Assembly: GCA_964621595.1 (NCBI GenBank)
Contig: CAZUPO010000002.1
Coordinates: 12,047 to 76,046 of the forward strand
Source: an uncultured Candidatus Saccharibacteria bacterium
GTDB lineage: Bacteria; Patescibacteriota; Minisyncoccia; Phycocordibacterales; UBA5272
DNA: 64,000 nucleotides
Reading direction: 5' to 3'
The number at the start of each line of letters is the position of its first letter. Position 1 is the first letter of the stretch. Position numbers and translations under genes: made by a program. The notes beneath the pieces were generated by a model. The model was not told where the DNA came from and did not search any database. It saw nothing but the letters and a program-made list of their open reading frames with translations. This document shows, in pieces, positions 10,374 through 62,583 of the stretch.

Positions 10374-11288
10374 ATGATCGCCATGACTGCTGTGCTACCT
10401 GCGGTTGGTGGTTGCAATCTCAAGTGCGCGGGATGTTTTATTAATCAGCGCAAAGAGACCAATACCATCGACATGCGTACTGAGGACTACTTGAGATTTT
10501 TCAAGGAAACCCTCGCGATGCCGGAAGTCAACTCGTTTTCCATCCAGGGGCACGAGGCGCTTCTTCCCAGTGTGTACGAACTCACCAAGGAGTTGCTACA
10601 CATGAGCTGGGATGCCGGGCTGGTGACGTTGCTCGTCACCAATGGCGTGTACCTCAAAGAGGTCGCGCATGAGATTGTGCAAATCACTGACAGCATCATC
10701 GTGTCGGTAGATAGCCACAATCCGGCCCTGCATGACCTCTCGAGAGGAGAGCAGGGTGCCTGGCAAAAAACCATTGGCGGCATACAAGCCGTTCGTGATT
10801 GCTTTGAGGACGGAGTGGTTGGCGATGAGGTGTTCTCAAAATACATCTCTGTTGCATCCATTCTTTACCCGGGCAAGGTTGATCGCCTCCTTGGAATGCC
10901 GGAGCTTCTCAAGAAGCTTGGTGTTACCAACTGGGTGATAAGCCCGCTTATTTCCTTGAAAAGGGGAGGATACCACGACTCTGATTACATCCGCGTGAGG
11001 GAAAACCTCCTTCAACTTACCGAAATGGGTAAGACGCACGGTGTCAGGGTTGCTCTTTCCGACGAGTTTCGGAAACTAGAGCATGTGGAAGACCTTTTCA
11101 AGGCCTTGAGCGTCGATACGCTGGACAAAAATGCGACAATCGTAAGGTTGTCTCCTGATGCTTCAGTACGCGTCGGAAGAGAGATTCTTCAAGAAGAATC
11201 TTTTCGCAAATGGGACAGGAGAGAAGATCCTGTTGAGTTCCTCAAGGGGGCTCTTGCCGAATACAAGATTCGGTACTCCAATGTCTAG
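10374..11288 (+). CDS. Radical SAM enzyme (CxxxCxxC), no obvious SPASM domain
   Basis: GGCNLKCAGCF motif at residues about 12-21. SD AGGGAGA 7 nt upstream. GC-rich codon usage. Confidence 0.8.
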   Translation: MIAMTAVLPAVGGCNLKCAGCFINQRKETNTIDMRTEDYLRFFKETLAMPEVNSFSIQGHEALLPSVYELTKELLHMSWDAGLVTLLVTNGVYLKEVAHEIVQITDSIIVSVDSHNPALHDLSRGEQGAWQKTIGGIQAVRDCFEDGVVGDEVFSKYISVASILYPGKVDRLLGMPELLKKLGVTNWVISPLISLKRGGYHDSDYIRVRENLLQLTEMGKTHGVRVALSDEFRKLEHVEDLFKALSVDTLDKNATIVRLSPDASVRVGREILQEESFRKWDRREDPVEFLKGALAEYKIRYSNV

Positions 11289-11576
11289 AATGGGCATCGA
11301 CCGCAGACCTTGGTCTGACTGCGGTATATAAATTAACAAGGACATCTGGTGGCGGTGAAATAAACGACACACAGGTACGTGAAGAGGTATAAAAGACTAA
11401 AGCCCTTCACAAAGCTCCATTGGTAGACGCGCTTAGACTACCCGCTGTGAACCGAGCGTGATCGTGGTTATGGGGAATTGAGTGTCTACACCTCTTCCCC
11501 ATCTTTATAAAGTTTCTAAAGTAATTTAGGAATTTTTAGAGATATGTTCTTTAAAACCAACCTAAGGGAGATACAC

Positions 11577-11954
11577 ATGAGCACCATGATCAATGTCCTC
11601 GTTGTTGACGATGAAGCATACATGATGGAAGTGGTGGCCTGGATGGCCAAAAAGTCTGGGGTCAATATGAGCCGGGCTAGCACCAGGGTGGAGATGGAAA
11701 AATTCCTGGGAGAATCGTCCTTCGACGCCATCCTCATGGATGGCAACCTCTCCGGATGGGGTACGACGCATGAACCCAATTTCCCCGGAGCATGGGTGGT
11801 GCATGAGCTTCGTGGTCGTGGTATCACAACGAAGATCTTCATGTTTTCGTCCGATGAGGAGCGTCTTGCGGAAGGAATCGCGCTGGGTGCAAATGGGGTC
11901 TTCAGCAAAAGGAAGAGTGACTGGAAGGAACTCGTCCAACTCGTGAAGAGTTAG
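11577..11954 (+). CDS. Stand-alone response-regulator receiver (CheY-like REC) domain protein
   Basis: INVLVVDDE acidic pocket, ILMDGNL phospho-acceptor Asp, FMFSSDEE and FSKRK motifs. SD AAGGGAGA before ATG 11577. No output domain. Confidence 0.7.
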   Translation: MSTMINVLVVDDEAYMMEVVAWMAKKSGVNMSRASTRVEMEKFLGESSFDAILMDGNLSGWGTTHEPNFPGAWVVHELRGRGITTKIFMFSSDEERLAEGIALGANGVFSKRKSDWKELVQLVKS

Positions 11955-13540: not shown

Positions 13541-13570
13541 TATAAAAAAAGAAACTGAGAGGGGTCCTCT
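13541..13570 (-). terminator. Terminator for the small GC-rich ORF (minus strand)
   Basis: On the minus strand GAGAGG-ACC-CCTCTC followed by a 9-T run (A-run 13544-13553 on +). Confidence 0.45.
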
Positions 13571-13590
13571 CGGTCGTGCAACCGGTGCAC

Positions 13591-13836
13591 TCATTCACCC
13601 GCACCGGGGCGCCCGCACCTGCGATGAAAGCAGGGCTCTTCCTCCGGAGTCCCACACTCTTTCACGGTGCAGGACTTGCTTGGAGGAAAGAACGTGTCGC
13701 TGAGCGGGGGTTTCCAGCCATCGTTGAACGGAAGCGTCACCAGCCCCGCAGCGACCATCTGGCGCCCGGCAGAGCTGGCGACCGGATGACTCACGCTTGC
13801 CTCGTCAGCGGTCGGTGTATTGGCGTCTCGAGCCAT
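13591..13836 (-). CDS. Small GC-rich hypothetical protein (81 aa) with C-terminal four-Cys cluster
   Basis: SD AAAGGAGGA then ATG (rc of 13834-13836). MARDANTPTADEAS...CTVKECGTPEEEPCFHRRCGRPGAGE. Promoter-like TTGACT-N16-TACACT upstream on minus at about 13851-13885. Confidence 0.45.
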   Translation of the reverse strand: MARDANTPTADEASVSHPVASSAGRQMVAAGLVTLPFNDGWKPPLSDTFFPPSKSCTVKECGTPEEEPCFHRRCGRPGAGE

Positions 13837-13890
13837 ACCATCCTCCTTTTCGGTTAAAGTGCTTTCAGTGTACAATAATTTTATAAAAAG

Positions 13891-14847
13891 TCAACCATGA
13901 TCCTTCTTTCTTTTGGTGTGGAACTTCTCAAACTGATCCCTCAGGAATTTGTTGGTAACGTTGGTATAGATCTGTGTCGTTGCAATCGACGCATGACCAA
14001 GCATCATTTGTACCGTACGTAAATCCGCTCCATTATAAAGAAGATCAGTTGCGAATGAGTGACGTATGACGTGTGGTGTGCACTTCTTGGCAATGCCTGC
14101 ACGCTCGGCATACTTGTTCACTGTGCGCTCTACACTGCGCGGGGTAAGGCGAATAGATTCTTCTTTTTCGATACGTGCCGCGGCCCGAGGCGAGTGATCA
14201 ACAAACATTGCTTCATCTATATCTACCCTCTCTCGAAGATATGCTTTCACTGCATCATGAGCATGAGAAGACACAAAAACCACGCGAATTTTTCCACCCT
14301 TTCCACGTACGGAAATTTCTCCATTTCCAAGATCAATATCTCTATCGAGTGAACAGAGTTCGGACACGCGAAGCCCAGTTGAAAAGAGAAGTTCAAGCAT
14401 GGCGCGGTCACGCAAACCAGCGAGGGTCTTTGCATCCGGCGCCGAAAGAAGAAGAGAGAGTTCTTTTTCACTAATTAAATCAAGTTCTCTCCCGACTGTC
14501 TTTGCTAGTTCAATTCGCTCTGGATCATACCCCTTGATACCTTTGCGGCGCACATATTTGAGAAATGCTCGAAGAGCTATGAGGTGATAGTTCTGTGTTT
14601 TTTTATCGAGCGTTTCTTGTGCTTGCCCTTTTTTCTGTTTGCGTGCTGGGTGACGATTTAAATAAATTCGATACTCTCGCATGAGTGCTTCTGTAATTTC
14701 AGAAGGGGAGGAAACTTTGTGAACCTTTTCAGCGAATTCTAAAAAGCGAGAAATGTAGTGATCGTAGTTGCGCACAGTGAGTGCTGATCGACCTTTTTCG
14801 ATTTCGATGTATTGTAAAAAATCTTGTTTGAGAGAAAACAAATCCAT
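13891..14847 (-). CDS. Tyrosine site-specific recombinase XerC/XerD family
   Basis: C-terminal catalytic region HVIRHSFATDLLYNGADLRTVQMMLGHASIATTQIYTNV (R..HxxR..Y). Start taken at MDLFSLKQ. Confidence 0.85.
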   Translation of the reverse strand: MDLFSLKQDFLQYIEIEKGRSALTVRNYDHYISRFLEFAEKVHKVSSPSEITEALMREYRIYLNRHPARKQKKGQAQETLDKKTQNYHLIALRAFLKYVRRKGIKGYDPERIELAKTVGRELDLISEKELSLLLSAPDAKTLAGLRDRAMLELLFSTGLRVSELCSLDRDIDLGNGEISVRGKGGKIRVVFVSSHAHDAVKAYLRERVDIDEAMFVDHSPRAAARIEKEESIRLTPRSVERTVNKYAERAGIAKKCTPHVIRHSFATDLLYNGADLRTVQMMLGHASIATTQIYTNVTNKFLRDQFEKFHTKRKKDHG

Positions 14848-14902
14848 TCTCACAAGTATACTCCAGTGTCGCACAATATTACCCAGACTTGTTCACCTGG
14901 TC

Positions 14903-14974: not shown

Positions 14975-15595
14975 CTACCGGCTGGAGAAGGGGAAGGCGA
15001 TGACCTTGATCGCCAACTCCTCGGCAATCGTCTCGCCGTCGCGATTTGCCACAGACGTCATCCACCGTTCGACATGCAGGAGGTTGTTCTCTCGGTGCAC
15101 CGAGACCGTCGTCTCGACATTACCGTTTAGACGCATCGCGATGGTCTCGAATCCGATGAGACCCTTCATGATGTTACCGTCGTCGTCGATGAGGACGATG
15201 CGGCACGTCTTCAGGTACCGCGGCAACATGCGCACGACCACGTCACCGGTGGTGCAACTGCCGGGGTTCTTGAGGGCGGTGATCGGTCGAGGCAACCTGC
15301 GCTCCTCGATCAGATCGCTACCTCGATAGACCGTAATCGAACGCGATCCGCCTCGCATGAGGTGCGTGCTGCGCTCTTCCTTGCCGGTCTCGAGCGACCG
15401 CTCCGAGATGATGAACCCCTCGGATGCGGCGGTCACGACCGCCATGGTGTCGTAGGACACCGGCAGGCGAACCACCTGGCCAGAGGTGCGCTCGACGCGA
15501 TAACCTGTGACCTGGTAGAGGTACTTCCCTTCGTCACCCTGGGCAAACGCGCCGAAGGAAACGAAGGAAAGGACAAACAAGATGAGGGTGTGCAT
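14975..15595 (-). CDS. Secreted hypothetical protein (206 aa), GC-rich cassette 4
   Basis: Signal peptide MHTLILFVLSFVSFGAFAQG. SD AAGGAGG 6 nt before ATG. GC-rich codons. Confidence 0.55.
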   Translation of the reverse strand: MHTLILFVLSFVSFGAFAQGDEGKYLYQVTGYRVERTSGQVVRLPVSYDTMAVVTAASEGFIISERSLETGKEERSTHLMRGGSRSITVYRGSDLIEERRLPRPITALKNPGSCTTGDVVVRMLPRYLKTCRIVLIDDDGNIMKGLIGFETIAMRLNGNVETTVSVHRENNLLHVERWMTSVANRDGETIAEELAIKVIAFPFSSR

Positions 15596-47720: not shown

Positions 47721-49424
47721 TTAGTAATCACCGTAAAGATCAACAACGCGCCCAACTTCCTCGAAGGAGGTTATTCCTTCCAGTGTTTTTAGTATAGCAT
47801 CTTCACGGAGTGTAGGGATTCCCTGATTTTTTGATGCAATCATGATCTCTCTCTCACTTGGATTGGTTATGAGAACCTTTTCTACTTCAGCAGTGATAAC
47901 AACCCCTTCAAATATTCCAATACGCCCCTTGTATCCAGTACCATCACAATGCAAACATCCAACAGGGCGGTAGAGTTTATATCCAACATCGGGTTTGTGT
48001 CCAAGCATAGAGTCCTCCTTTCCATCAGTTTTCATAACCCCAAGTATAGTGGTGATGACGCGAGTCTCCTTTTCGTTAGATAGATATTCTTCCTTACATT
48101 CAGGACAGAGTTTTCGCACAAGACGCTGTGCCAGCGAGAGGGAGAGCGCCCCCGCGATCACTTTTGGATTTACTCCGAGGTCAATCAGTCGTGGGATGGT
48201 ACCAGCAGCGTTGTTGGTGTGCAGGGTAGAGAACACCAGGTGGCCAGTAAGGGCTGCATTGATCGCAACCTTGGCGGTATCTTCGTCACGGATTTCTCCC
48301 ACCATGATTATGTCCGGATCTTGGCGGAGTGCCGCACGAAGACCAGAGAGAAAGGTATAACCTTTTTTAGGATCAACTTGTGTTTGAGTGATTCCCTCAA
48401 GGTGGTATTCAACAGGATCTTCGATAGTAATAATTTTTGTTTCTGTGGTGTAGGTGGTGCGGAGGAATGCGTAGAGGGTTGTCGTTTTTCCTGACCCTGT
48501 TGGACCAGTTGTGAGAATAACACCATTTGGTTTTGCAAGAGATCTCTCCACGATCTCACGCAACTTCTCCGGAAATGCTATTTGGTGTAAATCAGAAACA
48601 GTGTTTCGTGGATCAAGAAGCCGCATCACAAAACTCTCCCCGTAATTTCCTGGGACAACAGACACGCGCACATCCACCTCCACCTCCCCCAGGTTCACAC
48701 TGAAGCGCCCATCTTGAGCGTTTGCGGTTGTTGAGAGTTTAAGACCAGAGAGAAGTTTGATACGACTCTCGATACTTTTTAGGGACTCAAAATCAAAGAA
48801 AGAAATATCCTCAAGAATTCCATTAAGACGGTAGCGCAAACGCACCCTCTCTTCTTCGGGCTCGATGTGGATGTCGCTTGCACCGAACTTCAGTGCCCCA
48901 GCAACCATAAGTTCCATGATGCGACTTGTTTTGTAGAGAACGTTAGAGGTGGTTAACTTTTCAAATACATCGCGCAACTCCTCGACTGTATCAAAACTCG
49001 CCATGAGTTTCGTCATCTTCTCTGGGGTTAGTTCGAGCATGCCGCTCTCTACATTGGAAAAGCGTTGTAGATCAGCGTATCTATCGTACACGTGACGAAG
49101 GGACGCGTGTGAACACATGAAAAGAAGTATTTGATAATTTTTTTCTTCAAGCGGACGAAGGACCTCCTCCATTGCAGGGTTATCTGGTGAAAGAGAGGCG
49201 ACGTACAACTTCTTCCCAACGAGTTTGAAAGGGGCGATGTTTGCACGCTCAGCATCTTCTTTTGAAATGACAAGGAGAGCGTCTGGTTCAGGCGCAAGAC
49301 CACGCAGGTCAGCATACGGAAGCCCATACTTATCGGAAAGTATCTTTACCAACTCCTCCTCCTCATCTTTGTGGAGGTCTTGGATTGCGAGATTTTGTTT
49401 TTCATCATTAAAAACAACAGACAT
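47721..49424 (-). CDS. Type IV pilus/type II secretion assembly ATPase (PilB/GspE family)
   Basis: N-terminal GSPII_E_N-like domain. Walker A TGPTGSGKTTTLYA. Tetracysteine motif CPECK...CLHCDGTGYKGR. Confidence 0.85.
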   Translation of the reverse strand: MSVVFNDEKQNLAIQDLHKDEEEELVKILSDKYGLPYADLRGLAPEPDALLVISKEDAERANIAPFKLVGKKLYVASLSPDNPAMEEVLRPLEEKNYQILLFMCSHASLRHVYDRYADLQRFSNVESGMLELTPEKMTKLMASFDTVEELRDVFEKLTTSNVLYKTSRIMELMVAGALKFGASDIHIEPEEERVRLRYRLNGILEDISFFDFESLKSIESRIKLLSGLKLSTTANAQDGRFSVNLGEVEVDVRVSVVPGNYGESFVMRLLDPRNTVSDLHQIAFPEKLREIVERSLAKPNGVILTTGPTGSGKTTTLYAFLRTTYTTETKIITIEDPVEYHLEGITQTQVDPKKGYTFLSGLRAALRQDPDIIMVGEIRDEDTAKVAINAALTGHLVFSTLHTNNAAGTIPRLIDLGVNPKVIAGALSLSLAQRLVRKLCPECKEEYLSNEKETRVITTILGVMKTDGKEDSMLGHKPDVGYKLYRPVGCLHCDGTGYKGRIGIFEGVVITAEVEKVLITNPSEREIMIASKNQGIPTLREDAILKTLEGITSFEEVGRVVDLYGDY

Positions 49425-49709: not shown

Positions 49710-50351
49710 ATGCAACGCCTTATCATCGCGGCGATCCTCGTCGCGAGCGCCCTCCTCGGAGGGTGCGCAGGGATGCCCGGGTTTGGAGATACGGGTGCAG
49801 TTGGGGGTGAGGTCATTACCCTGCGCTGCGCAGATCCCGACCCCGGCTATCGCGGACTACCCAACGGAAGTTGGGTGAAGGGCCCCTGCTACAACTGGCA
49901 GGTCGCAGAGCCCGGCCACACCGGGGGATATACCCGCCAGATCAGAACGGGCTCCAGCAACGCATGCCGTACGGCGATGGAAGTCGCAGGGATCGGTGTT
50001 GGGGTTGGTGTTGGTGCCCTGTCCACCACGCAGAAGAACAGGCTGGCTGGCATGCTCATTGGTGGAGCCGTCGGGTACGGGGGTGGTTACCTCATCGGTA
50101 ACACCTTCTGCAGCAAGAACACCGTCGAGGGTATCCTCGCCGGTGGTGGTACTCGGCCCTCCGTCAAGTACTACGACGGGGCGCCGACGGTCAAAGGGGG
50201 TGTGACCTGCGCCCTCCGCCACAACGACCGGCTGGTCGCCGACTTCTTCGACAAGAAGAAGAACCCGGAGGGTATCGAGATTCCCTCTCAGGGCGCAGGC
50301 GAGCAGTGCCGGGCCGCCATCGAGCGAGTCCGGAAGCAGGCGGGGATCTAA
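49710..50351 (+). CDS. Lipoprotein with glycine-zipper motif (SlyB/17-kDa-antigen-like), GC-rich cassette 5
   Basis: Lipobox LLGGC after the signal peptide. GIGVGVGVGALS...GMLIGGAVGYGGGYLIGN glycine zipper. SD AAGGAGAG 6 nt before ATG. Confidence 0.6.
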   Translation: MQRLIIAAILVASALLGGCAGMPGFGDTGAVGGEVITLRCADPDPGYRGLPNGSWVKGPCYNWQVAEPGHTGGYTRQIRTGSSNACRTAMEVAGIGVGVGVGALSTTQKNRLAGMLIGGAVGYGGGYLIGNTFCSKNTVEGILAGGGTRPSVKYYDGAPTVKGGVTCALRHNDRLVADFFDKKKNPEGIEIPSQGAGEQCRAAIERVRKQAGI

Positions 50352-50374
50352 TTCCCGCCGCGAGCAACAACTTC

Positions 50375-50410
50375 GAGGCTGGGCCCTGTGCCCAGCCTCT
50401 TTCATTTTTA
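50375..50410 (+). terminator. Rho-independent terminator
   Basis: GAGGCTGGGC-CCTGT-GCCCAGCCTC perfect 10-bp stem followed by TTTCATTTTTAT. Confidence 0.7.
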
Positions 50411-50477
50411 TATAAAAGCATTGCAAAATAAGGATTTTTTAGTACCCAATCCCAAAAGAGTAAAGTATAAATAGGGG

Positions 50478-50506
50478 TTGACAAATAGAACTGAACCTGA
50501 TATAAT
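50478..50506 (+). promoter_or_regulatory. Perfect-consensus sigma70 promoter (TTGACA-N17-TATAAT)
   Basis: -35 at 50478-50483, -10 at 50501-50506. The 118-nt leader has two GACTTAAGTT direct repeats (50515-50524 and 50541-50550) and a CCGCGGA-TAT-TCCGCGG hairpin at 50589-50605, abutting the SD. Confidence 0.55.
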
Positions 50507-50624
50507 ATACCCATAGACTTAAGTTAGTGGAAGATAGTTCCGGACTTAAGTTGTCTCGTTCCCCATCAACCTCATCAACAAAACCCAAACCGCGGATATT
50601 CCGCGGAGAAAGAAGGAGATCACC

Positions 50625-51314
50625 ATGTTTGGATACTTGCGCGCGCTGCAAGGCGCGCACAACACGCAGTGGCAAGGTCAGGCGCGCGGCCGTTTCGGCC
50701 GTCGCGCGGGGGCGATCACCTTCTGGGCGATCGTCATCCTCATCCTCCTGCTGTCCCTCTGGGGCAGCTGGAAACTCTCGTCCGCGGCCAACAACCAGGA
50801 CGAGCTGGTAGCGAACCTGCGCCAGCAGGTCACTACCCTGACCGGCGCGGACACCCGCGCCACCGTCTGCCAGACGGAGCTTGACAAGAGCAATACCGAA
50901 CTGAAGCAGGTGAAGTCCTTCTTCCCCGAGGGGGTCAACCTCGAGGGGGTCAAGAAGGCCTGCGCGGTTCTCACCCCGGCAGGTCCGACCAGGACCTCGG
51001 TCCCGACCGGTAGCGGCCGTGCGGCTCCCACCGCTCCGACCAACGCCGCGTGTACCACCTGCGCCTCCCCGGCGCAGACCATCCGCGTGGTGTTGGAGCA
51101 ACAACCCGCGCCGGCGCCCGCCACCCCGGTGGCGCAGCGCGAGGAGCCGAAGGCGCCGGTCGTCGAGATGAAGCCGTGCACGTACTACGTGAACGGCGTC
51201 TCGAAGGCAACCACCAGGTTACCCGAAGGTTCGTCCTTCGAATCGGAGTGCCGCCGCTGGACCGACGGCCTCGCGGCCGCCGGCAAAAAGAAATTCTCCA
51301 ACCAGGTGGACTAA
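50625..51314 (+). CDS. Membrane-anchored coiled-coil / Pro-Ala-rich hypothetical protein, GC-rich cassette 6
   Basis: Basic N-terminus, TM AITFWAIVILILLLSLWGSW, coiled-coil, Pro/Ala/Thr-rich linker, Cys-containing C-terminus. SD AAGGAGA. Confidence 0.55.
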   Translation: MFGYLRALQGAHNTQWQGQARGRFGRRAGAITFWAIVILILLLSLWGSWKLSSAANNQDELVANLRQQVTTLTGADTRATVCQTELDKSNTELKQVKSFFPEGVNLEGVKKACAVLTPAGPTRTSVPTGSGRAAPTAPTNAACTTCASPAQTIRVVLEQQPAPAPATPVAQREEPKAPVVEMKPCTYYVNGVSKATTRLPEGSSFESECRRWTDGLAAAGKKKFSNQVD

Positions 51315-51467: not shown

Positions 51468-53477
51468 ATGAAAAACAAAATTATTAAAGCAAACATCGTA
51501 ACCGCAGTCCTTTTCACGGGCATTTTTATGCTTGCTGTTGGAACCGCGTCTGCGCAGTCTGATGGTTTTGGATATAACTACGTAGATGTACCAAGTGGTT
51601 ATAACTATGTAGATACTTCTGACTACGGAACAACGAATGTAAATTCAGGAACAGGCTACAACTATGTAGACACTACTACTGCCCCTTCGACATCGTTTGG
51701 CTACAACTATGTAGATTCTTCATCCCCATCAACAACTTTTGGTTATAACTATGTAGATAGTACAGATAATTCTGGTTATGGAACGACAAATGTCTATACA
51801 AACACACCAACGGTTGGATACACAGGATCATCGTTCCTCAGCGGCTTCGGAGGACTTAGTGGATTTGGATACACTCCTTCCTACTACTCTTCTGGTATTG
51901 GATACACAACATATGGGTATACCAACTACGGATCTAATCCAACAACACAGTGTCCTTCAGGAACCAATTATGTAAATGGTGTATGTCAGCCAAATACACA
52001 GTGTCCTTCTGGTACCAACTATGTAAACGGCGTGTGTGTTCCGACAACACAATGTCCAGCAGGAACAACCTACAGCAATGGATCATGTGTTGTTAACTCA
52101 GTAAGTTGTCCATCAGGAACAACCCTTGTGAACGGAGCGTGTGTTGTAAATACAACCACATGTCCAGCGGGCACAACTCTTGTAAATGGTGTATGTACTA
52201 CAAACATCACTACTTGTCCCGCAGGAACAACTCTCATAAACGGTGTATGTACAACTAATATAATTACTCCTACGTATGTATGTCCAAATGGAACGACAGT
52301 AAACTACTCATACCAGTGTCCTACGACAACATACACATATCAAACATGTTGGGACGGAACAACTATTCCACTTAACTCAGTATGTCCTAATCAGTACAAA
52401 CTTTGTCCAAACGGAACAAGTATCCCTGTTAACCAAACATGTTACTACGGAACAACATACACATACGCTGTTCCTCAAACTATTATCAAGTTCAACAATG
52501 TTGTAACATCTCCTGCAACACAGGTGACAAACAACTCAGGTCGTTGTAACGGTATCGGACTTATCGCAAACGGCGCTGCGTCAACTGGATGGTTCGAATA
52601 CGGAGAAACATCATCTCTTGGTCGCGAAACAGCGCATGCGTCCATCGGCAACAACCACACTGCACCATTCTCTAACCTTCTTACAAACCTCAAGCCAAAT
52701 ACTCGCTACTACTGTCGCGCTGTAATGCAGAATCAGTATGGAGTTGTAAAAGGGGAGATCGTTGGATTCACTACAAAGGGAACAAAAGTTACATACGTAA
52801 CCCCAGTTGTAAAAACAGTTGTTAAAAAGGTTGAAAAGAAGCCAGAAGTAACTTGTACAGACGGCACAACTTCATGGGTAAAGAACGGATCTGCAACGGT
52901 AACCTCTACTGTACAAGGAGATAAGTTGGTAGCACTCACCGTTGATAACACATTCTCTCGTTACGCAGCAGGATCACCAATAACATACAAGATCTCATAC
53001 AAGAATCTATCAGATTCTACTCTCACAGGAGTTCTTGTCTCAGTGGTTCTTCCAGCAGAAATCGAAATTACAAGCGCAAGTGCTGGTACCTACGATGTAA
53101 TGACTCGTACCCTTACAGCGAATGTCGATATTCTCGGAGCACGCAGTGAAGGAACAATCACCATCGAAGGCGTTGTATCAAAAGATGCATCTATCGGTAA
53201 GAGTGTCGTTACAACTGGATACATTGTTTACACCGTACCAAGTACAAAACTTCAAGACGAAGTTACTGCGTATACTGTCGGATCAATCTCCCCAAGTGAT
53301 GCAACTCTCAAGTCAGATACAGGTGCAAAGAAGGTGTACGATCTAGGCGGAAGTGAACGTAGTTTCCTACCAAACACTCTCGTGGAATGGTTAGCACTCA
53401 TCGCAATTGTCTTCATCGTATTCATCCTTGCACGAAGCATTTATCTCTCTTACCAGGGAGATAAAGAAGGACACTAG
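51468..53477 (+). CDS. Large cell-surface repeat protein with C-terminal TM anchor
   Basis: Signal peptide. Six GYNYVD-containing repeats. About eight Cys-bracketed repeats (QCPSGTNYVNGVC / TCPAGTTLVNGVC). C-terminal hydrophobic anchor LALIAIVFIVFILARS. Confidence 0.6.
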   Translation: MKNKIIKANIVTAVLFTGIFMLAVGTASAQSDGFGYNYVDVPSGYNYVDTSDYGTTNVNSGTGYNYVDTTTAPSTSFGYNYVDSSSPSTTFGYNYVDSTDNSGYGTTNVYTNTPTVGYTGSSFLSGFGGLSGFGYTPSYYSSGIGYTTYGYTNYGSNPTTQCPSGTNYVNGVCQPNTQCPSGTNYVNGVCVPTTQCPAGTTYSNGSCVVNSVSCPSGTTLVNGACVVNTTTCPAGTTLVNGVCTTNITTCPAGTTLINGVCTTNIITPTYVCPNGTTVNYSYQCPTTTYTYQTCWDGTTIPLNSVCPNQYKLCPNGTSIPVNQTCYYGTTYTYAVPQTIIKFNNVVTSPATQVTNNSGRCNGIGLIANGAASTGWFEYGETSSLGRETAHASIGNNHTAPFSNLLTNLKPNTRYYCRAVMQNQYGVVKGEIVGFTTKGTKVTYVTPVVKTVVKKVEKKPEVTCTDGTTSWVKNGSATVTSTVQGDKLVALTVDNTFSRYAAGSPITYKISYKNLSDSTLTGVLVSVVLPAEIEITSASAGTYDVMTRTLTANVDILGARSEGTITIEGVVSKDASIGKSVVTTGYIVYTVPSTKLQDEVTAYTVGSISPSDATLKSDTGAKKVYDLGGSERSFLPNTLVEWLALIAIVFIVFILARSIYLSYQGDKEGH

Positions 53478-59546: not shown

Positions 59547-60467
59547 CTATTTTTGACAGGTAGTACAAAAATGTGCGCTGCGACCACCGACTGTTTTCTT
59601 ATGAATTATTCCAGAACAATCTTTTTTGGTACAAGGTTGTTTTGTTCTAAGATAAACGTTGTGGTTGTGGTGGAATGCTCCGCGCTCCCCAGATACGTTT
59701 CGGTAGTCACTTGTACTATCTCCACCAAAATCAATTCCCTTCGAGAGAACTTTTTTCATGGCAGCATATAAAAGAGGCCACTCTGAATCACGAACTTTTT
59801 TGGGTATTCGTGTAGGTAAAATGTGGGCAAGGTGAAGCATTTCATCTGAGTAAATATTTCCAATCCCGGCAATTATTTTTTGATCCATGAGAACAGTTTT
59901 TATCGCGCGCGCCGGGGAGAGGAGTACACGTTCTCGAAATTTCTCGAGCGTGAAGTTTTTTTCCAACGGCTCTGGACCCAAATGTGAAAATCGCCCAGTT
60001 TCTAGAGAAGACGTTCTTTCTACTACAATGGTGCCAAACTTGCGTGAGTCACAAAATACCAGGTGGTTGTTATTTGAAAGTGTAAACACAACATGAATGT
60101 GTCGATTGTATGGATCAGAAAGAGCGGAATTTTTTTGCTTGGGAATCCACGCCCACTCTTTCCCGTTGTAGTGTTCATTATGTACGTAACTACCGTACAT
60201 AAGGTGACCGGTCATTTTCATGTGTATGATCACCGTGCAACCATTTTCTAAATCGATAAGGATATGTTTTGCGCGACGACGAACACGAAGAATTTTTGTT
60301 CCGAGAGCGTACTTTTTAAAATATGAAAAATATCCTCGATCCTTGATGGTGTTCTTTGCGAGTTTGGAGGTGCTCCACATGTCGGACCACACATCCACAA
60401 ACCTTTTTCCAGGTAGGATTTTTTGTAGTCCAGTGACTGTTGTATGAACTTCTGGTAATTCTGGCAT
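59547..60467 (-). CDS. fpg: Formamidopyrimidine-DNA glycosylase (Fpg/Nei family)
   Basis: N-terminal MPELPEV catalytic motif (start chosen there). C-terminal zinc finger CTKKDCSG...CTTCQK. Confidence 0.85.
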   Translation of the reverse strand: MPELPEVHTTVTGLQKILPGKRFVDVWSDMWSTSKLAKNTIKDRGYFSYFKKYALGTKILRVRRRAKHILIDLENGCTVIIHMKMTGHLMYGSYVHNEHYNGKEWAWIPKQKNSALSDPYNRHIHVVFTLSNNNHLVFCDSRKFGTIVVERTSSLETGRFSHLGPEPLEKNFTLEKFRERVLLSPARAIKTVLMDQKIIAGIGNIYSDEMLHLAHILPTRIPKKVRDSEWPLLYAAMKKVLSKGIDFGGDSTSDYRNVSGERGAFHHNHNVYLRTKQPCTKKDCSGIIHKKTVGGRSAHFCTTCQK

Positions 60468-60590
60468 AGGTATCTTGTAGAGTATAGAAAAAGATAGAAA
60501 TTCGCAATGGTTACATTTATCACACTTTCTGGTAGTATGGTACCTGAATCCCAGTATTTTAGGGAAAAACCAGTCAACCGAGGAGATACC

Positions 60591-61268
60591 ATGAAACACG
60601 TCGGAGGCGGCGAGCGGCGCCGCAACAGAAAGATCACGGCGCAGATCCGCCGCGCGATCAAGAACGGCTTCACGTACTACGCAAGGACGGTGTGCGGGCG
60701 CCCGCGAAGAATCCCGAGCGAAGTAACCGCACCTGCGAATCCTGCACCGGTGGCAAAGGTCGCGGAGGAAGACAATTCCTACCTCCAGATCAAGCTTGCG
60801 GATATCCGGGTGGGCGCCGAGCTCTACAGTTGGGAACTGCTTCGGATGTCTGCGGCAGGGATCAACACGCTCGGGGATCTCTATGCGGTCGGCTTCTCTG
60901 GTTTCCTCGCAACACCGAATCTCGAGAAGGGGACCATTCTGAAGATCGGCGGGTGGTTGCGGGTAAACCGGTACCCGATGATTCCCGAGATGGGAAATGG
61001 GTTACGGTTGGAATTCACGAAGTTCAGCGTCACGCCGGTGACCAGTCTTCCCCTTCGGCAGATGACGATGAATTCCTTCGAGCGGGCTAGCATCAGGACA
61101 CTCGGGGAGGTCTATCGTCTGGGCTTCTCGGGGCTGAAGCACGTCCTCGGTCGCCATGGATTTGGTGCCAAGAGGAAGGAAGACATCATCCAGGCGCTCC
61201 AGAACATCGGGGCTCCGCCGCTCAACGAGATGGGCCACAACGAAGACTGGGCTCCGAAAGGAGGATAG
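60591..61268 (+). CDS. GC-rich protein with two tandem RNA polymerase alpha C-terminal-domain (alphaCTD)-like helix-hairpin-helix modules
   Basis: SD GAGGAGA before ATG 60591. Repeats AAGINTLGDLYAVGFSGFLATPNLEKGTILKIGGWL and RASIRTLGEVYRLGFSGLKHVLGRHGFGAKRKEDIIQALQNIG resemble alphaCTD (ANCLKAEAIHYIGDL...[20 protein letters not shown]). Basic N-terminus. Confidence 0.55.
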   Translation: MKHVGGGERRRNRKITAQIRRAIKNGFTYYARTVCGRPRRIPSEVTAPANPAPVAKVAEEDNSYLQIKLADIRVGAELYSWELLRMSAAGINTLGDLYAVGFSGFLATPNLEKGTILKIGGWLRVNRYPMIPEMGNGLRLEFTKFSVTPVTSLPLRQMTMNSFERASIRTLGEVYRLGFSGLKHVLGRHGFGAKRKEDIIQALQNIGAPPLNEMGHNEDWAPKGG

Positions 61269-61281
61269 AAGGAGACCAGGA

Positions 61282-61309
61282 AAGGGGTCGCGCGTAAGCG
61301 CGACCCCTT
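61282..61309. terminator. Perfect 12-bp stem hairpin between convergent genes
   Basis: AAGGGGTCGCGC-GTAA-GCGCGACCCCTT. Weak T-tract. Confidence 0.5.
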
Positions 61310-61314
61310 AACAT

Positions 61315-62583
61315 TTATACACCCGCGCGCAGTTTTTCTAATTCTTCTCGTACGACCTGAGCATCATCCCAAGGAATTTTCTTTCCCTGTTCTACCATTA
61401 TGTACGGATCAGTACCTTTACCAGTTATAAGTATTGTGTCCCCGGCATGCGCTCGTCTAAGAGCGTGAGCAATTGCCTCTCGACGATCGAGAATGATGGT
61501 TGGATTATGTCGGGTTACACCAGCGGCCACCTCACGGATTATTTTCTCAGGATCCTCATCGTACGGATCTTCGTTGGTTATAATTATTTCATCGCAATAT
61601 TCATCCGCAATACTTCCAAGTACGGGTCGTTTCCAGGAGTCACGCCCACCGCCTGTGGATCCAAGCACACCAATCTTTCGTGATGAGGGAAATGTTTCAT
61701 ACAACTTACGCAAACTGTCGTCAGTATGAGCGTAATCAACAATAACGGTAAAATTTTGCCCCACCTCGACCCTCTCCACACGACCTCGGATAAGCGAGAG
61801 GGATTCGATACCAGCCTTTGACTGTTCTACAGAAATTCCAAACGCTTCAGCGAGCTTGATCGCGGCAAGTGCATTTAGTATGTTGAACTTTCCTGGTAGA
61901 GGAATAGTAATCTGTACACCGCGGTATTCGATCATGCTACTAGTTTGTGTTTCAAACACGATACGTACATCCTTAAGAGAGTACCCAATATTTTTTTCTA
62001 TAGCGTAGATAAGAAATGAATGACCGTGTTTGTTGTCTACATTTGCGACTGCCACACGTAAAGGCTTTTGGCTTTTTGCGAGTTGCTTCGCAAGTTTGAG
62101 TTTGGCGTTTTTATAATTTTCAAAAGACCCATGACTTTCTATGTGTTCTGGAGAAAGGTTGGTGAAAACAAGAGCGTCCATGTCGATCCCTACATGTCGA
62201 GAAAAGCGCGCCCCCTCAGAGGTCATCTCAATAATTGCTACATGACAGCCAGCATCGAGCGCTTCCCGTAAGAATTTTTGAGTAAAAAACCTCCCAGGCA
62301 TTGTCATCTTGTATTTATTTGGTTGAGTACGTTCTCCAACTTTGAAACGAATGGTTGAAAGAATTGCCGTCCTGTATCCAGCCGCCTCAAATACCGCGTT
62401 TACAAACTCAACTGTCGAGGATTTTCCTTTTGTTCCGGTAACACCCACTACCAGTATTTTTCGAGAAGGTTTTCTGTAGAGAAGGGTTCCTGTGCAAGCG
62501 AGTATGTAGTGATAGAGAGGTTGGAGAGCCTTGTACACCTTCCTCGGAACTATTTTTTCTACGCTTCGCAAAAGTGTTTCCAT
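61315..62583 (-). CDS. Mur ligase family protein (MurE-like; lacks typical N-terminal domain)
   Basis: GVTGTKGKSST P-loop, NLSPEHIESHG, DYAHTDDSL and ITGKGTDPY motifs. Confidence 0.75.
   Translation of the reverse strand: METLLRSVEKIVPRKVYKALQPLYHYILACTGTLLYRKPSRKILVVGVTGTKGKSSTVEFVNAVFEAAGYRTAILSTIRFKVGERTQPNKYKMTMPGRFFTQKFLREALDAGCHVAIIEMTSEGARFSRHVGIDMDALVFTNLSPEHIESHGSFENYKNAKLKLAKQLAKSQKPLRVAVANVDNKHGHSFLIYAIEKNIGYSLKDVRIVFETQTSSMIEYRGVQITIPLPGKFNILNALAAIKLAEAFGISVEQSKAGIESLSLIRGRVERVEVGQNFTVIVDYAHTDDSLRKLYETFPSSRKIGVLGSTGGGRDSWKRPVLGSIADEYCDEIIITNEDPYDEDPEKIIREVAAGVTRHNPTIILDRREAIAHALRRAHAGDTILITGKGTDPYIMVEQGKKIPWDDAQVVREELEKLRAGV

Follow-up and report, generated by a model that had tools for sequence, protein, structure and literature searches.

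The window, by which we mean the whole 64,000-nt stretch of DNA analyzed and to whose positions all coordinates without another label refer, contains a small GC-rich gene in the slot between fpg and a Mur ligase family gene. The features of this locus are:

59547-60467, minus strand: fpg, encoding formamidopyrimidine-DNA glycosylase, the divergent neighbor and one boundary of the slot
60511-60538, plus strand: promoter-like element TTACAT-N16-TAGTAT (hexamers at 60511-16 and 60533-38), read directly from the sequence
60580-60585, plus strand: ribosome binding site (RBS) GAGGAG, 5 nt before the ATG, read from the sequence
60591-61268, plus strand: coding sequence (CDS) of a free-standing protein with two alpha-CTD-like modules (225 aa, pI 10.2), placed from frame and codon-position GC
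61282-61293/61298-61309, strand unassigned: 12-bp perfect GC-rich hairpin with a GUAA loop (−27.2 kcal/mol, z −6.3)
61315-62583, minus strand: Mur ligase family gene, the convergent neighbor and other boundary of the slot

The reading frame accounts for the 226-aa, GC-rich product described in the first-pass annotation, which corresponds to 225 aa plus the stop codon. The gene is divergent from fpg, as that annotation also stated. The two are separated by 123 nt, and the GC content of the gene is ~0.60 over 60591-61312, compared to ~0.42 in the flanks and ~42-44% for the genome. Analysis of codon positions revealed the classic coding pattern, with GC3 (0.75) exceeding GC1 (0.58) and GC2 (0.46), in this frame only. 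The length of the frame is only modestly unusual, a stop-free run at least as long occurring in 54 of 5000 shuffles, so that its coding status is carried by the codon-position pattern and by homologues. These homologues form, together with the window protein (P0001), a family of five clusters, P0001 to P0005. The two closest members, P0004 and P0005, showed a dN/dS of 0.22, and the family thus appears, from sequence comparison, to be under purifying selection. Two other ENA assemblies (L001 and L002) carry the same CDS and both of its junctions at 99.3-99.9% identity, and the 225-codon frame is unbroken in all three assemblies. Because both junctions recur in this way, an assembly chimera was rejected as the source of the GC island. 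Given the codon-position GC, the RBS, the terminator, the dN/dS and the presence of the same locus in two other assemblies, we take the gene to be real.

The ENA gene calls place the start at an upstream ATG at 60507, giving a protein of 253 aa (P0001). We favor the start at 60591, because the putative promoter and the GC-rich block both begin downstream of 60507, and because the N-termini of the homologues align with 60591. The promoter-like element reported in the first-pass annotation is present at 60511-60538, but its −35 matches the consensus at only two of six positions, which is why a consensus promoter scan called no promoter there. A TG at 60530-31, giving TGgTAGTAT, makes an extended −10 plausible, and the homologues in L007 and L083 are preceded by a similar element, TGGTAGTGT. 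At the other end of the gene, the perfect 12-bp hairpin was confirmed, although it lacks a good U-tract. Situated between the convergent CDS and Mur ligase gene, with weak U-tracts, it is likely a bidirectional terminator. Apart from this generic terminator, Rfam contains no element matching the locus. A match to BjrC68, a Bradyrhizobiaceae sRNA, at 61238-61316 (plus strand) reached 26.2 bits, where the gathering score is 39; we rejected it as a pointer to a GC-rich donor, since it is sub-threshold and carried by the generic GNRA terminator hairpin.

The two ENA contigs with this locus break at matching positions. L002 corresponds exactly to 60337-62152; L001 has the same 62152 end, together with a scaffold gap of Ns at 60337. 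No repeat was found at 60337 or 62152, and these ends could reflect strain variation forming a bubble around the slot, or the use of shared read sets. An apparent 16-nt insertion in L001 was rejected as a frameshift, as it is a scaffold N-gap.

Domain architecture and fold of the protein

The encoded protein consists of a basic arm, a linker and two modules in tandem, all on the plus strand:

60591-60725: Arg-rich N-terminal arm, aa 1-45, net charge +11
60726-60776: Pro/Ala-rich acidic linker, aa 46-62
60777-60995: module 1, aa 63-135, a diverged alpha-CTD-like copy (…AGINTLGDLY…ATPNLEKG…PMIPEMG)
61011-61235: module 2, aa 141-215, alpha-CTD-like (HhH)2 (…SIRTLGEVY…HGFGAKRKEDIIQALQNIG…PPLNEMG)
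60854-60901 and 61085-61132: in-frame DNA direct repeat, 71% identity, spacing 231 nt

The basic character of the N-terminus, to which the first-pass annotation gave no weight, proved to be a family trait, as the Arg-rich N-terminal motif is common to all five clusters and the arm is the most conserved part of the family apart from the module. The window arm carries ERRRNRKITAQIRR, the family motif being ERRRxRKxTAQ, and the pI of the relatives (9.8-10.5) brackets that of the window protein. The arm has no relative in the PDB or Pfam, the PDB search having returned chance antibody matches only. It does contain an AT-hook-like GRPRR core at aa 36-40 (60696-60710). The Pfam AT-hook profile (PF02178) is defined by an R-G-R-P core with basic flanks; the window protein reads C-G-R-P-R-R at aa 35-40 and gave no AT_hook match, P0002 has RGRPPK and matched at E 0.049 (13.9 bits, cut-off 17.4), and P0003 and P0004 lack GRP.

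The two modules, each of ~75 aa and each ending in P-x-x-x-EMG, are 33% identical to one another, a duplication also visible in the in-frame DNA repeat. Comparison with a profile of four true alpha-CTDs using hhalign gave probabilities of 89.8% over 36 columns of module 1 and 91.3% over 59 columns of module 2, in agreement with the tandem alphaCTD-like modules first proposed. The alpha N-terminal dimerization domain is absent, as had also been stated, with no matches of the window protein to the RNA_pol_L or RNA_pol_A_bac models. With the window protein alone, the signal for the alpha-CTD was weak. Pfam PF03118 (RNA_pol_A_CTD) matched module 2 only, with 22.9 bits (E 6.8e-5), below the gathering threshold of 23.8; on the homologues the same model gave 40.7 bits for P0002, which passes, 17.6 bits for P0004 and no match for P0003. 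The NCBIfam rpoA models matched the module 2 stretch weakly, and the RpoA equivalog TIGR02027 reached 14.5 bits, in the CTD region only, compared to a cut-off of 227.8. The sole PDB sequence match of the window protein was an RpoA CTD (E 0.06-0.13), and module 1 by itself likewise matched only the CTD of an RpoA, at a non-significant E of 0.82. The strongest numbers thus depend on the family alignment: in the PDB, a profile of the family module matched over 50 different alpha-CTD sequences of RpoA, with a best E of 9e-11, and other HhH proteins (ComEA, Ski2 HhH and Dmc1) appeared at E ≥ 0.03 only.

Structure prediction pointed in the same direction. An AlphaFold2 model of aa 136-225, built without templates from a six-row alignment of the window and family sequences that contained no RpoA sequences, had a pLDDT of 77, and a Foldseek search with the module 2 model placed alpha-CTDs at all of ranks 1-23. 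The generic HhH fold outside the alpha-CTD type that might have emerged from this comparison was not seen for module 2. A full-length model from the single sequence was uninformative (pLDDT 37). On these predictions, module 2 has the alpha-CTD fold, a compact helical domain with two HhH motifs; module 1 is probably alpha-CTD-like, as judged from its similarity to module 2 and to the alpha-CTD. The evidence thus supports a fold that is specifically that of the alpha-CTD rather than of another HhH type.

The residues by which the alpha-CTD of Escherichia coli contacts UP elements (R265), sigma and CAP are not retained. The two HhH motifs of the alpha-CTD contact the minor groove of A/T-rich UP elements, R265 being essential for this binding. 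We take the E. coli determinants to be the 265 set (R265, N268, C269, G296, K298 and S299) together with 261 and 287. Reading these positions from the HMM and hhalign alignments, with E. coli as reference although the proper comparator is the host RpoA, gave the following:

R265: M in module 2, Y/W in module 1
N268: N (kept) in module 2, L/E in module 1
C269: S in module 2, a gap in module 1
G296: G (kept) in module 2, E in module 1
K298: K (kept) in module 2, G in module 1
S299: R in module 2, T in module 1

Family-wide, R265 is retained in P0002 only. Module 1 keeps TPNL. In module 2 the sigma contact positions are changed (D259 to S, E261 to P), and the 287 region, which contacts CAP, has a 3-residue insertion between helices (GFSGLKH), so that neither the 261 nor the 287 determinant is conserved relative to E. 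coli. With R265 and these determinants lost, canonical UP-element recognition and protein contacts of the E. coli type cannot be inferred. Generic backbone binding through the HhH motifs is plausible.

A protein family in the mur-fpg slot

Searches with the window protein alone found only itself, both in a word-indexed search of 5.8 billion proteins and in a full HMMER scan of 1.84 billion representatives, and no copy was present in the GTDB species genomes. In contrast, a search with the family profile recovered the four other clusters among the 5.8 billion proteins. The best matches of the neighboring Mur ligase are MAGs labeled 'Nomurabacteria' (Patescibacteria/Paceibacteria; 74% identity), and comparison with these relatives revealed conserved ruvA-mur-fpg synteny with a mur-fpg gap ranging from 45 bp to 1.7 kb. 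In L003, L007 and L012, the gap encodes proteins of 129-138 aa on the strand opposite mur, in each of which the Arg-rich motif at the N-terminus and a Pro-rich linker precede a single alpha-CTD-like module. P0003 is identical to the L003 protein and P0004 to the L007 protein, and P0002 is the L012 protein from its second Met. On the contig of P0005, the gene is divergent from fpg and has a Mur ligase fragment downstream. These single-module homologues in the same slot were not part of the first-pass annotation.

Annotation of some family members may need adjustment. P0005 was called at 121 aa (L083, 1347-1739), and its start is probably nine codons upstream (MPSVRQRRM…), which fits the MPSVRERRK start of P0004 and a GGGAG RBS. 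In L009, a 67-aa ORF at 2490-2700 on the minus strand of the locus (MPTPKRNRHIQRQRKKAQQKRRE…), with the family Arg-rich N-terminus, about half a module and its own terminator, looks like a truncated family member in the mur-fpg slot.

The gene is not universal in the clade. Five close relatives (L005, L006, L008, L011 and L017) have no room for it, with mur-fpg gaps of 45-160 bp, and other relatives have unrelated small genes in the slot. Many other Paceibacteria relatives have an amidase-like gene there. The comparisons show a family restricted to one chromosomal slot in one clade, so far in close relatives only. The nearest relative of the window protein is P0003, with 31% identity over the region that spans the N-terminus and module 1. 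Both window modules can be aligned with the one module of P0003, indicating that the tandem duplication is specific to the window's lineage. Sequence comparison also indicates that the family evolves much faster than the neighboring genes: P0004 and P0005 are 77% identical compared to 91.5% for fpg, the window protein and P0003 ~31% compared to 66%, and in more distant genomes the family protein is 20-31% identical compared to 66-75% for fpg.

Base composition sets the gene apart from most of the window. Its GC3 lies 7.9 SD above that of the window's 54 ordinary ORFs (0.372 ± 0.048, maximum 0.484), and among the 61 non-overlapping ORFs that reach 100 aa or more, 7 show a GC3 of 0.60-0.87. These GC3-rich ORFs form gene-sized islands with sharp boundaries:

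685-1254
10374-11288
11544-11954
14975-15595, minus strand
49710-50351
50625-51314
60591-61268, the gene described here

The six others comprise three secreted or membrane orphans, a radical-SAM protein, a receiver domain and a 189-aa ORF without a Pfam match; four of the six have no Pfam family above threshold, and three of these four have a signal peptide, a lipoprotein signal or a TM segment. The same-slot homologues have a GC3 of 0.38 to 0.62 in genomes of ~41-42% GC. The mur-fpg slot of distant Paceibacteria also holds GC3-rich orphans (L063 7279-8259, L074 7240-8393 and L040 7276-8738), of 148 aa (GC3.77), 247 aa (GC3.83) and 121 aa (GC3.74). Vertical inheritance should have removed such a bias, yet no donor is detectable. 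Candidate explanations are recent allele replacement, with unsampled GC-richer relatives as the source, and a recombination hot spot subject to GC-biased gene conversion. Such islands in a CPR genome that is otherwise poor in GC3 constitute a population-genetic or horizontal transfer signal of separate interest.

Several other features were observed. In the slot protein of L074, a signal peptide is combined with a PEP-CTERM-like C-terminus (…PSPGAIGLCGIGSLIAIRRRRQG), a finding one would not expect in a CPR bacterium. The GC-rich orphans at 49710-51314 are flanked on one side by an ORF of the size of a PilB-like type IV pilus ATPase (47721-49424, minus strand) and on the other by a 669-aa secreted protein (51468-53477, plus strand) with GYNYVD and CP(A/S)GTT(L/Y)VNG repeats. 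Elsewhere in the window, a GC-rich segment (13541-13880; 0.58-0.65) lies immediately 3′ of an XerC/D-type tyrosine recombinase (13891-14874, minus strand); it contains ORFs of 93-94 aa only, on both strands, gave no Rfam match at E ≤ 1, and may represent either a structured RNA of unknown type or the decayed form of a GC-rich gene.

Searches for a mobile or defense context were negative. With the window protein, tblastn found no match in 50,697 phage genomes, and with P0002 no significant one; a tblastn search of 72,556 plasmids gave a single insignificant match. PHROGs contained no match, and none of the PADLOC families matched the window protein, any of P0002-P0005 or two further slot occupants at E ≤ 0.1. 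No direct, inverted or target-site repeats pointing to insertion flank the gene. An integron cassette or transposon insertion was rejected, as there are no flanking repeats and the recombinase does not adjoin the locus. Judged from its sequence surroundings, the gene shows no sign of a phage, plasmid, ICE or defense context and lies in a conserved chromosomal slot between housekeeping genes.

Possible functions and comparison with known systems

We propose that this accessory gene of a Paceibacteria (Patescibacteria/CPR) bacterium, putatively expressed, encodes a small basic, predicted nucleic-acid-binding protein in which a flexible linker rich in Pro joins an Arg-rich arm with an AT-hook-like core to tandem (HhH)2 domains of the alpha-CTD type. 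The arm and the HhH hairpins would bind DNA, probably AT-rich, via the minor groove and the backbone, and the protein would act as an architectural or transcription-modulating factor. Nucleic-acid binding is known for AT-hooks and Arg-rich arms as well as for the alpha-CTD. With its two modules the window protein could bind bivalently, spanning two adjacent sites, its relatives carrying one module and its own lineage having presumably duplicated the module in tandem. We give this reading about an even chance of being correct; what we observed are the domain identity, the duplication, the family with its synteny, the coding status and the purifying selection in relatives, and any DNA binding, target or contact with RNA polymerase is inferred. 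The alignments also hold points against it, since R265 is not conserved and module 1 lacks G296 and K298 as well, and the foreign-looking codon usage (GC3 0.75) could mark a recent arrival outside host regulation.

The first-pass annotation had suggested that a soluble alpha-CTD mimic might bind UP elements or compete for activator contacts, in the manner of anti-activators encoded by phages or ICEs. In its fuller form, this would be an RNA polymerase decoy, with free alpha-CTD copies titrating activators, sigma region 4, NusA-like partners or UP elements, and rapid evolution might then reflect an arms race with phage. The specific alpha-CTD fold, the pace of evolution relative to fpg (77% against 91.5% for P0004 and P0005; ~31% against 66% for the window protein and P0003), the presence or absence of the gene in a variable slot and the occurrence of free-standing alpha-CTD-named proteins in phages are all consistent with such a role. 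Nevertheless, nothing beyond the fold favors UP-element binding or activator competition: R265 is M or Y/W, and 261 and 287 are not kept relative to E. coli, with the caveat that host RpoA is the proper comparator. The likeness to phage or ICE anti-activators lost ground as well, there being no mobile-element, phage, plasmid or defense signature (PHROGs and PADLOC were negative) and the slot being one between housekeeping genes. In addition, a conserved Arg-rich arm would be superfluous for a pure decoy, and few classical class I activators are known from CPR genomes. The data neither exclude nor support the decoy idea, which we consider unlikely. An arm that instead bound an RNA hairpin, with the modules docking on the transcription or translation machinery, would make the protein antitermination-like or ribosome-associated. 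The N-terminal arginine-rich motif resembles, we presume, the lambda N/Rev class, but this likeness is one of low complexity, the locus has no Rfam element other than the generic terminator and no RNA target was identified, leaving an RNA-binding role with a rather small chance.

The composition of the gene raises the possibility that it is a recently acquired or decaying foreign ORF without a host role, of which only the domain is still recognizable. Its GC3, with sharp island boundaries, its orphan status among 5.8 billion proteins and its frequent absence from relatives would all fit. Against this, the frame is intact in three assemblies, the putative promoter and RBS are of the AT-rich host type, the same-slot homologues are under purifying selection (dN/dS 0.22), the tandem duplication was kept in frame and no donor is detectable; we regard a foreign remnant as distinctly improbable. 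The protein might also be a trans-acting replacement for the alpha-CTD of a host RpoA whose own CTD is missing or degenerate. rpoA is absent from the 64-kb window, and all that favors this idea is the alpha-CTD-type fold. The gene is wholly missing from L005, L006, L008, L011 and L017, which argues against an essential split-off alpha-CTD, as this would not be dispensable, and the protein lacks R265 and any dimerization or RNAP-docking element, making replacement very improbable indeed. A more speculative variant, to which we attach little credence, is that the protein is the detachable alpha-CTD of a CPR clade, acting in trans as a competitor or substitute at AT-rich upstream DNA or at partners, with the arm as tether and the GC3 bias arising from repeated allele replacement at a recombination hot spot. 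If so, the replacement could occur, for example, under phage or host-interaction pressure, and the protein would represent a new class of transcription modulator made from a piece of the polymerase.

Returning to the proposed DNA-binding factor, its present status is that of a fold assignment on a lineage-specific hypothetical protein and not of a demonstrated mechanism. To our knowledge, transcription regulation in Patescibacteria is almost unknown, and the locus adds a defined family in this group with an added Arg-rich arm and, in the window's lineage, a tandem duplication. On bacterial RNA polymerase, UP elements and class I activators dock mainly at the alpha-CTD. If the protein does bind DNA or RNAP partners, a polymerase module would have been re-used as a trans-acting factor.

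Comparison with known systems places the protein closest in fold to the alpha-CTD of RpoA (PF03118; approximately residues 249-329 in E. coli), from which it differs in having no alpha N-terminal dimerization/assembly domain, in its two tandem copies and Arg-rich N-terminal arm, and in the loss of R265, the unconserved 261 and 287 determinants, the 3-residue insertion and a score below the Pfam cut-off. Other (HhH)2 or SAM-like domains, such as the N-terminal domain of RAD51C/XRCC3, RuvA domain II, ComEA and Pol X, share the common HhH superfold and non-specific binding to the DNA backbone. Phages encode small, stand-alone proteins, 105-240 aa in length, that are annotated as 'RNA polymerase alpha subunit C-terminal domain-containing', as in these examples:

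A0A6J5M7I6, uncultured Caudovirales phage, 135 aa
A0A2P1JY10, Rhodococcus phage Finch, 240 aa
A0A5Q2WLP1, Mycobacterium phage Mithril, 149 aa

A Foldseek search of viral structures with the module 2 model matched such proteins with probabilities up to 1.0 (TMq 0.49-0.65), and an alpha-CTD without a polymerase is thus already an annotated kind of protein. We know of none of these free-standing phage proteins that has been characterized, and a literature search on free-standing alpha-CTD proteins found nothing relevant. The phage proteins have no sequence similarity to the window family detectable by tblastn in the 50,697 phage genomes and, unlike the phage genes, the window gene is chromosomal and occupies a housekeeping slot of a CPR bacterium. 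A further parallel is NusA of the transcription machinery, whose AR1-AR2 we take to be tandem acidic (HhH)2 repeats derived from an internal duplication; like the window protein, it has two tandem (HhH)2 domains that arose by duplication within the gene.
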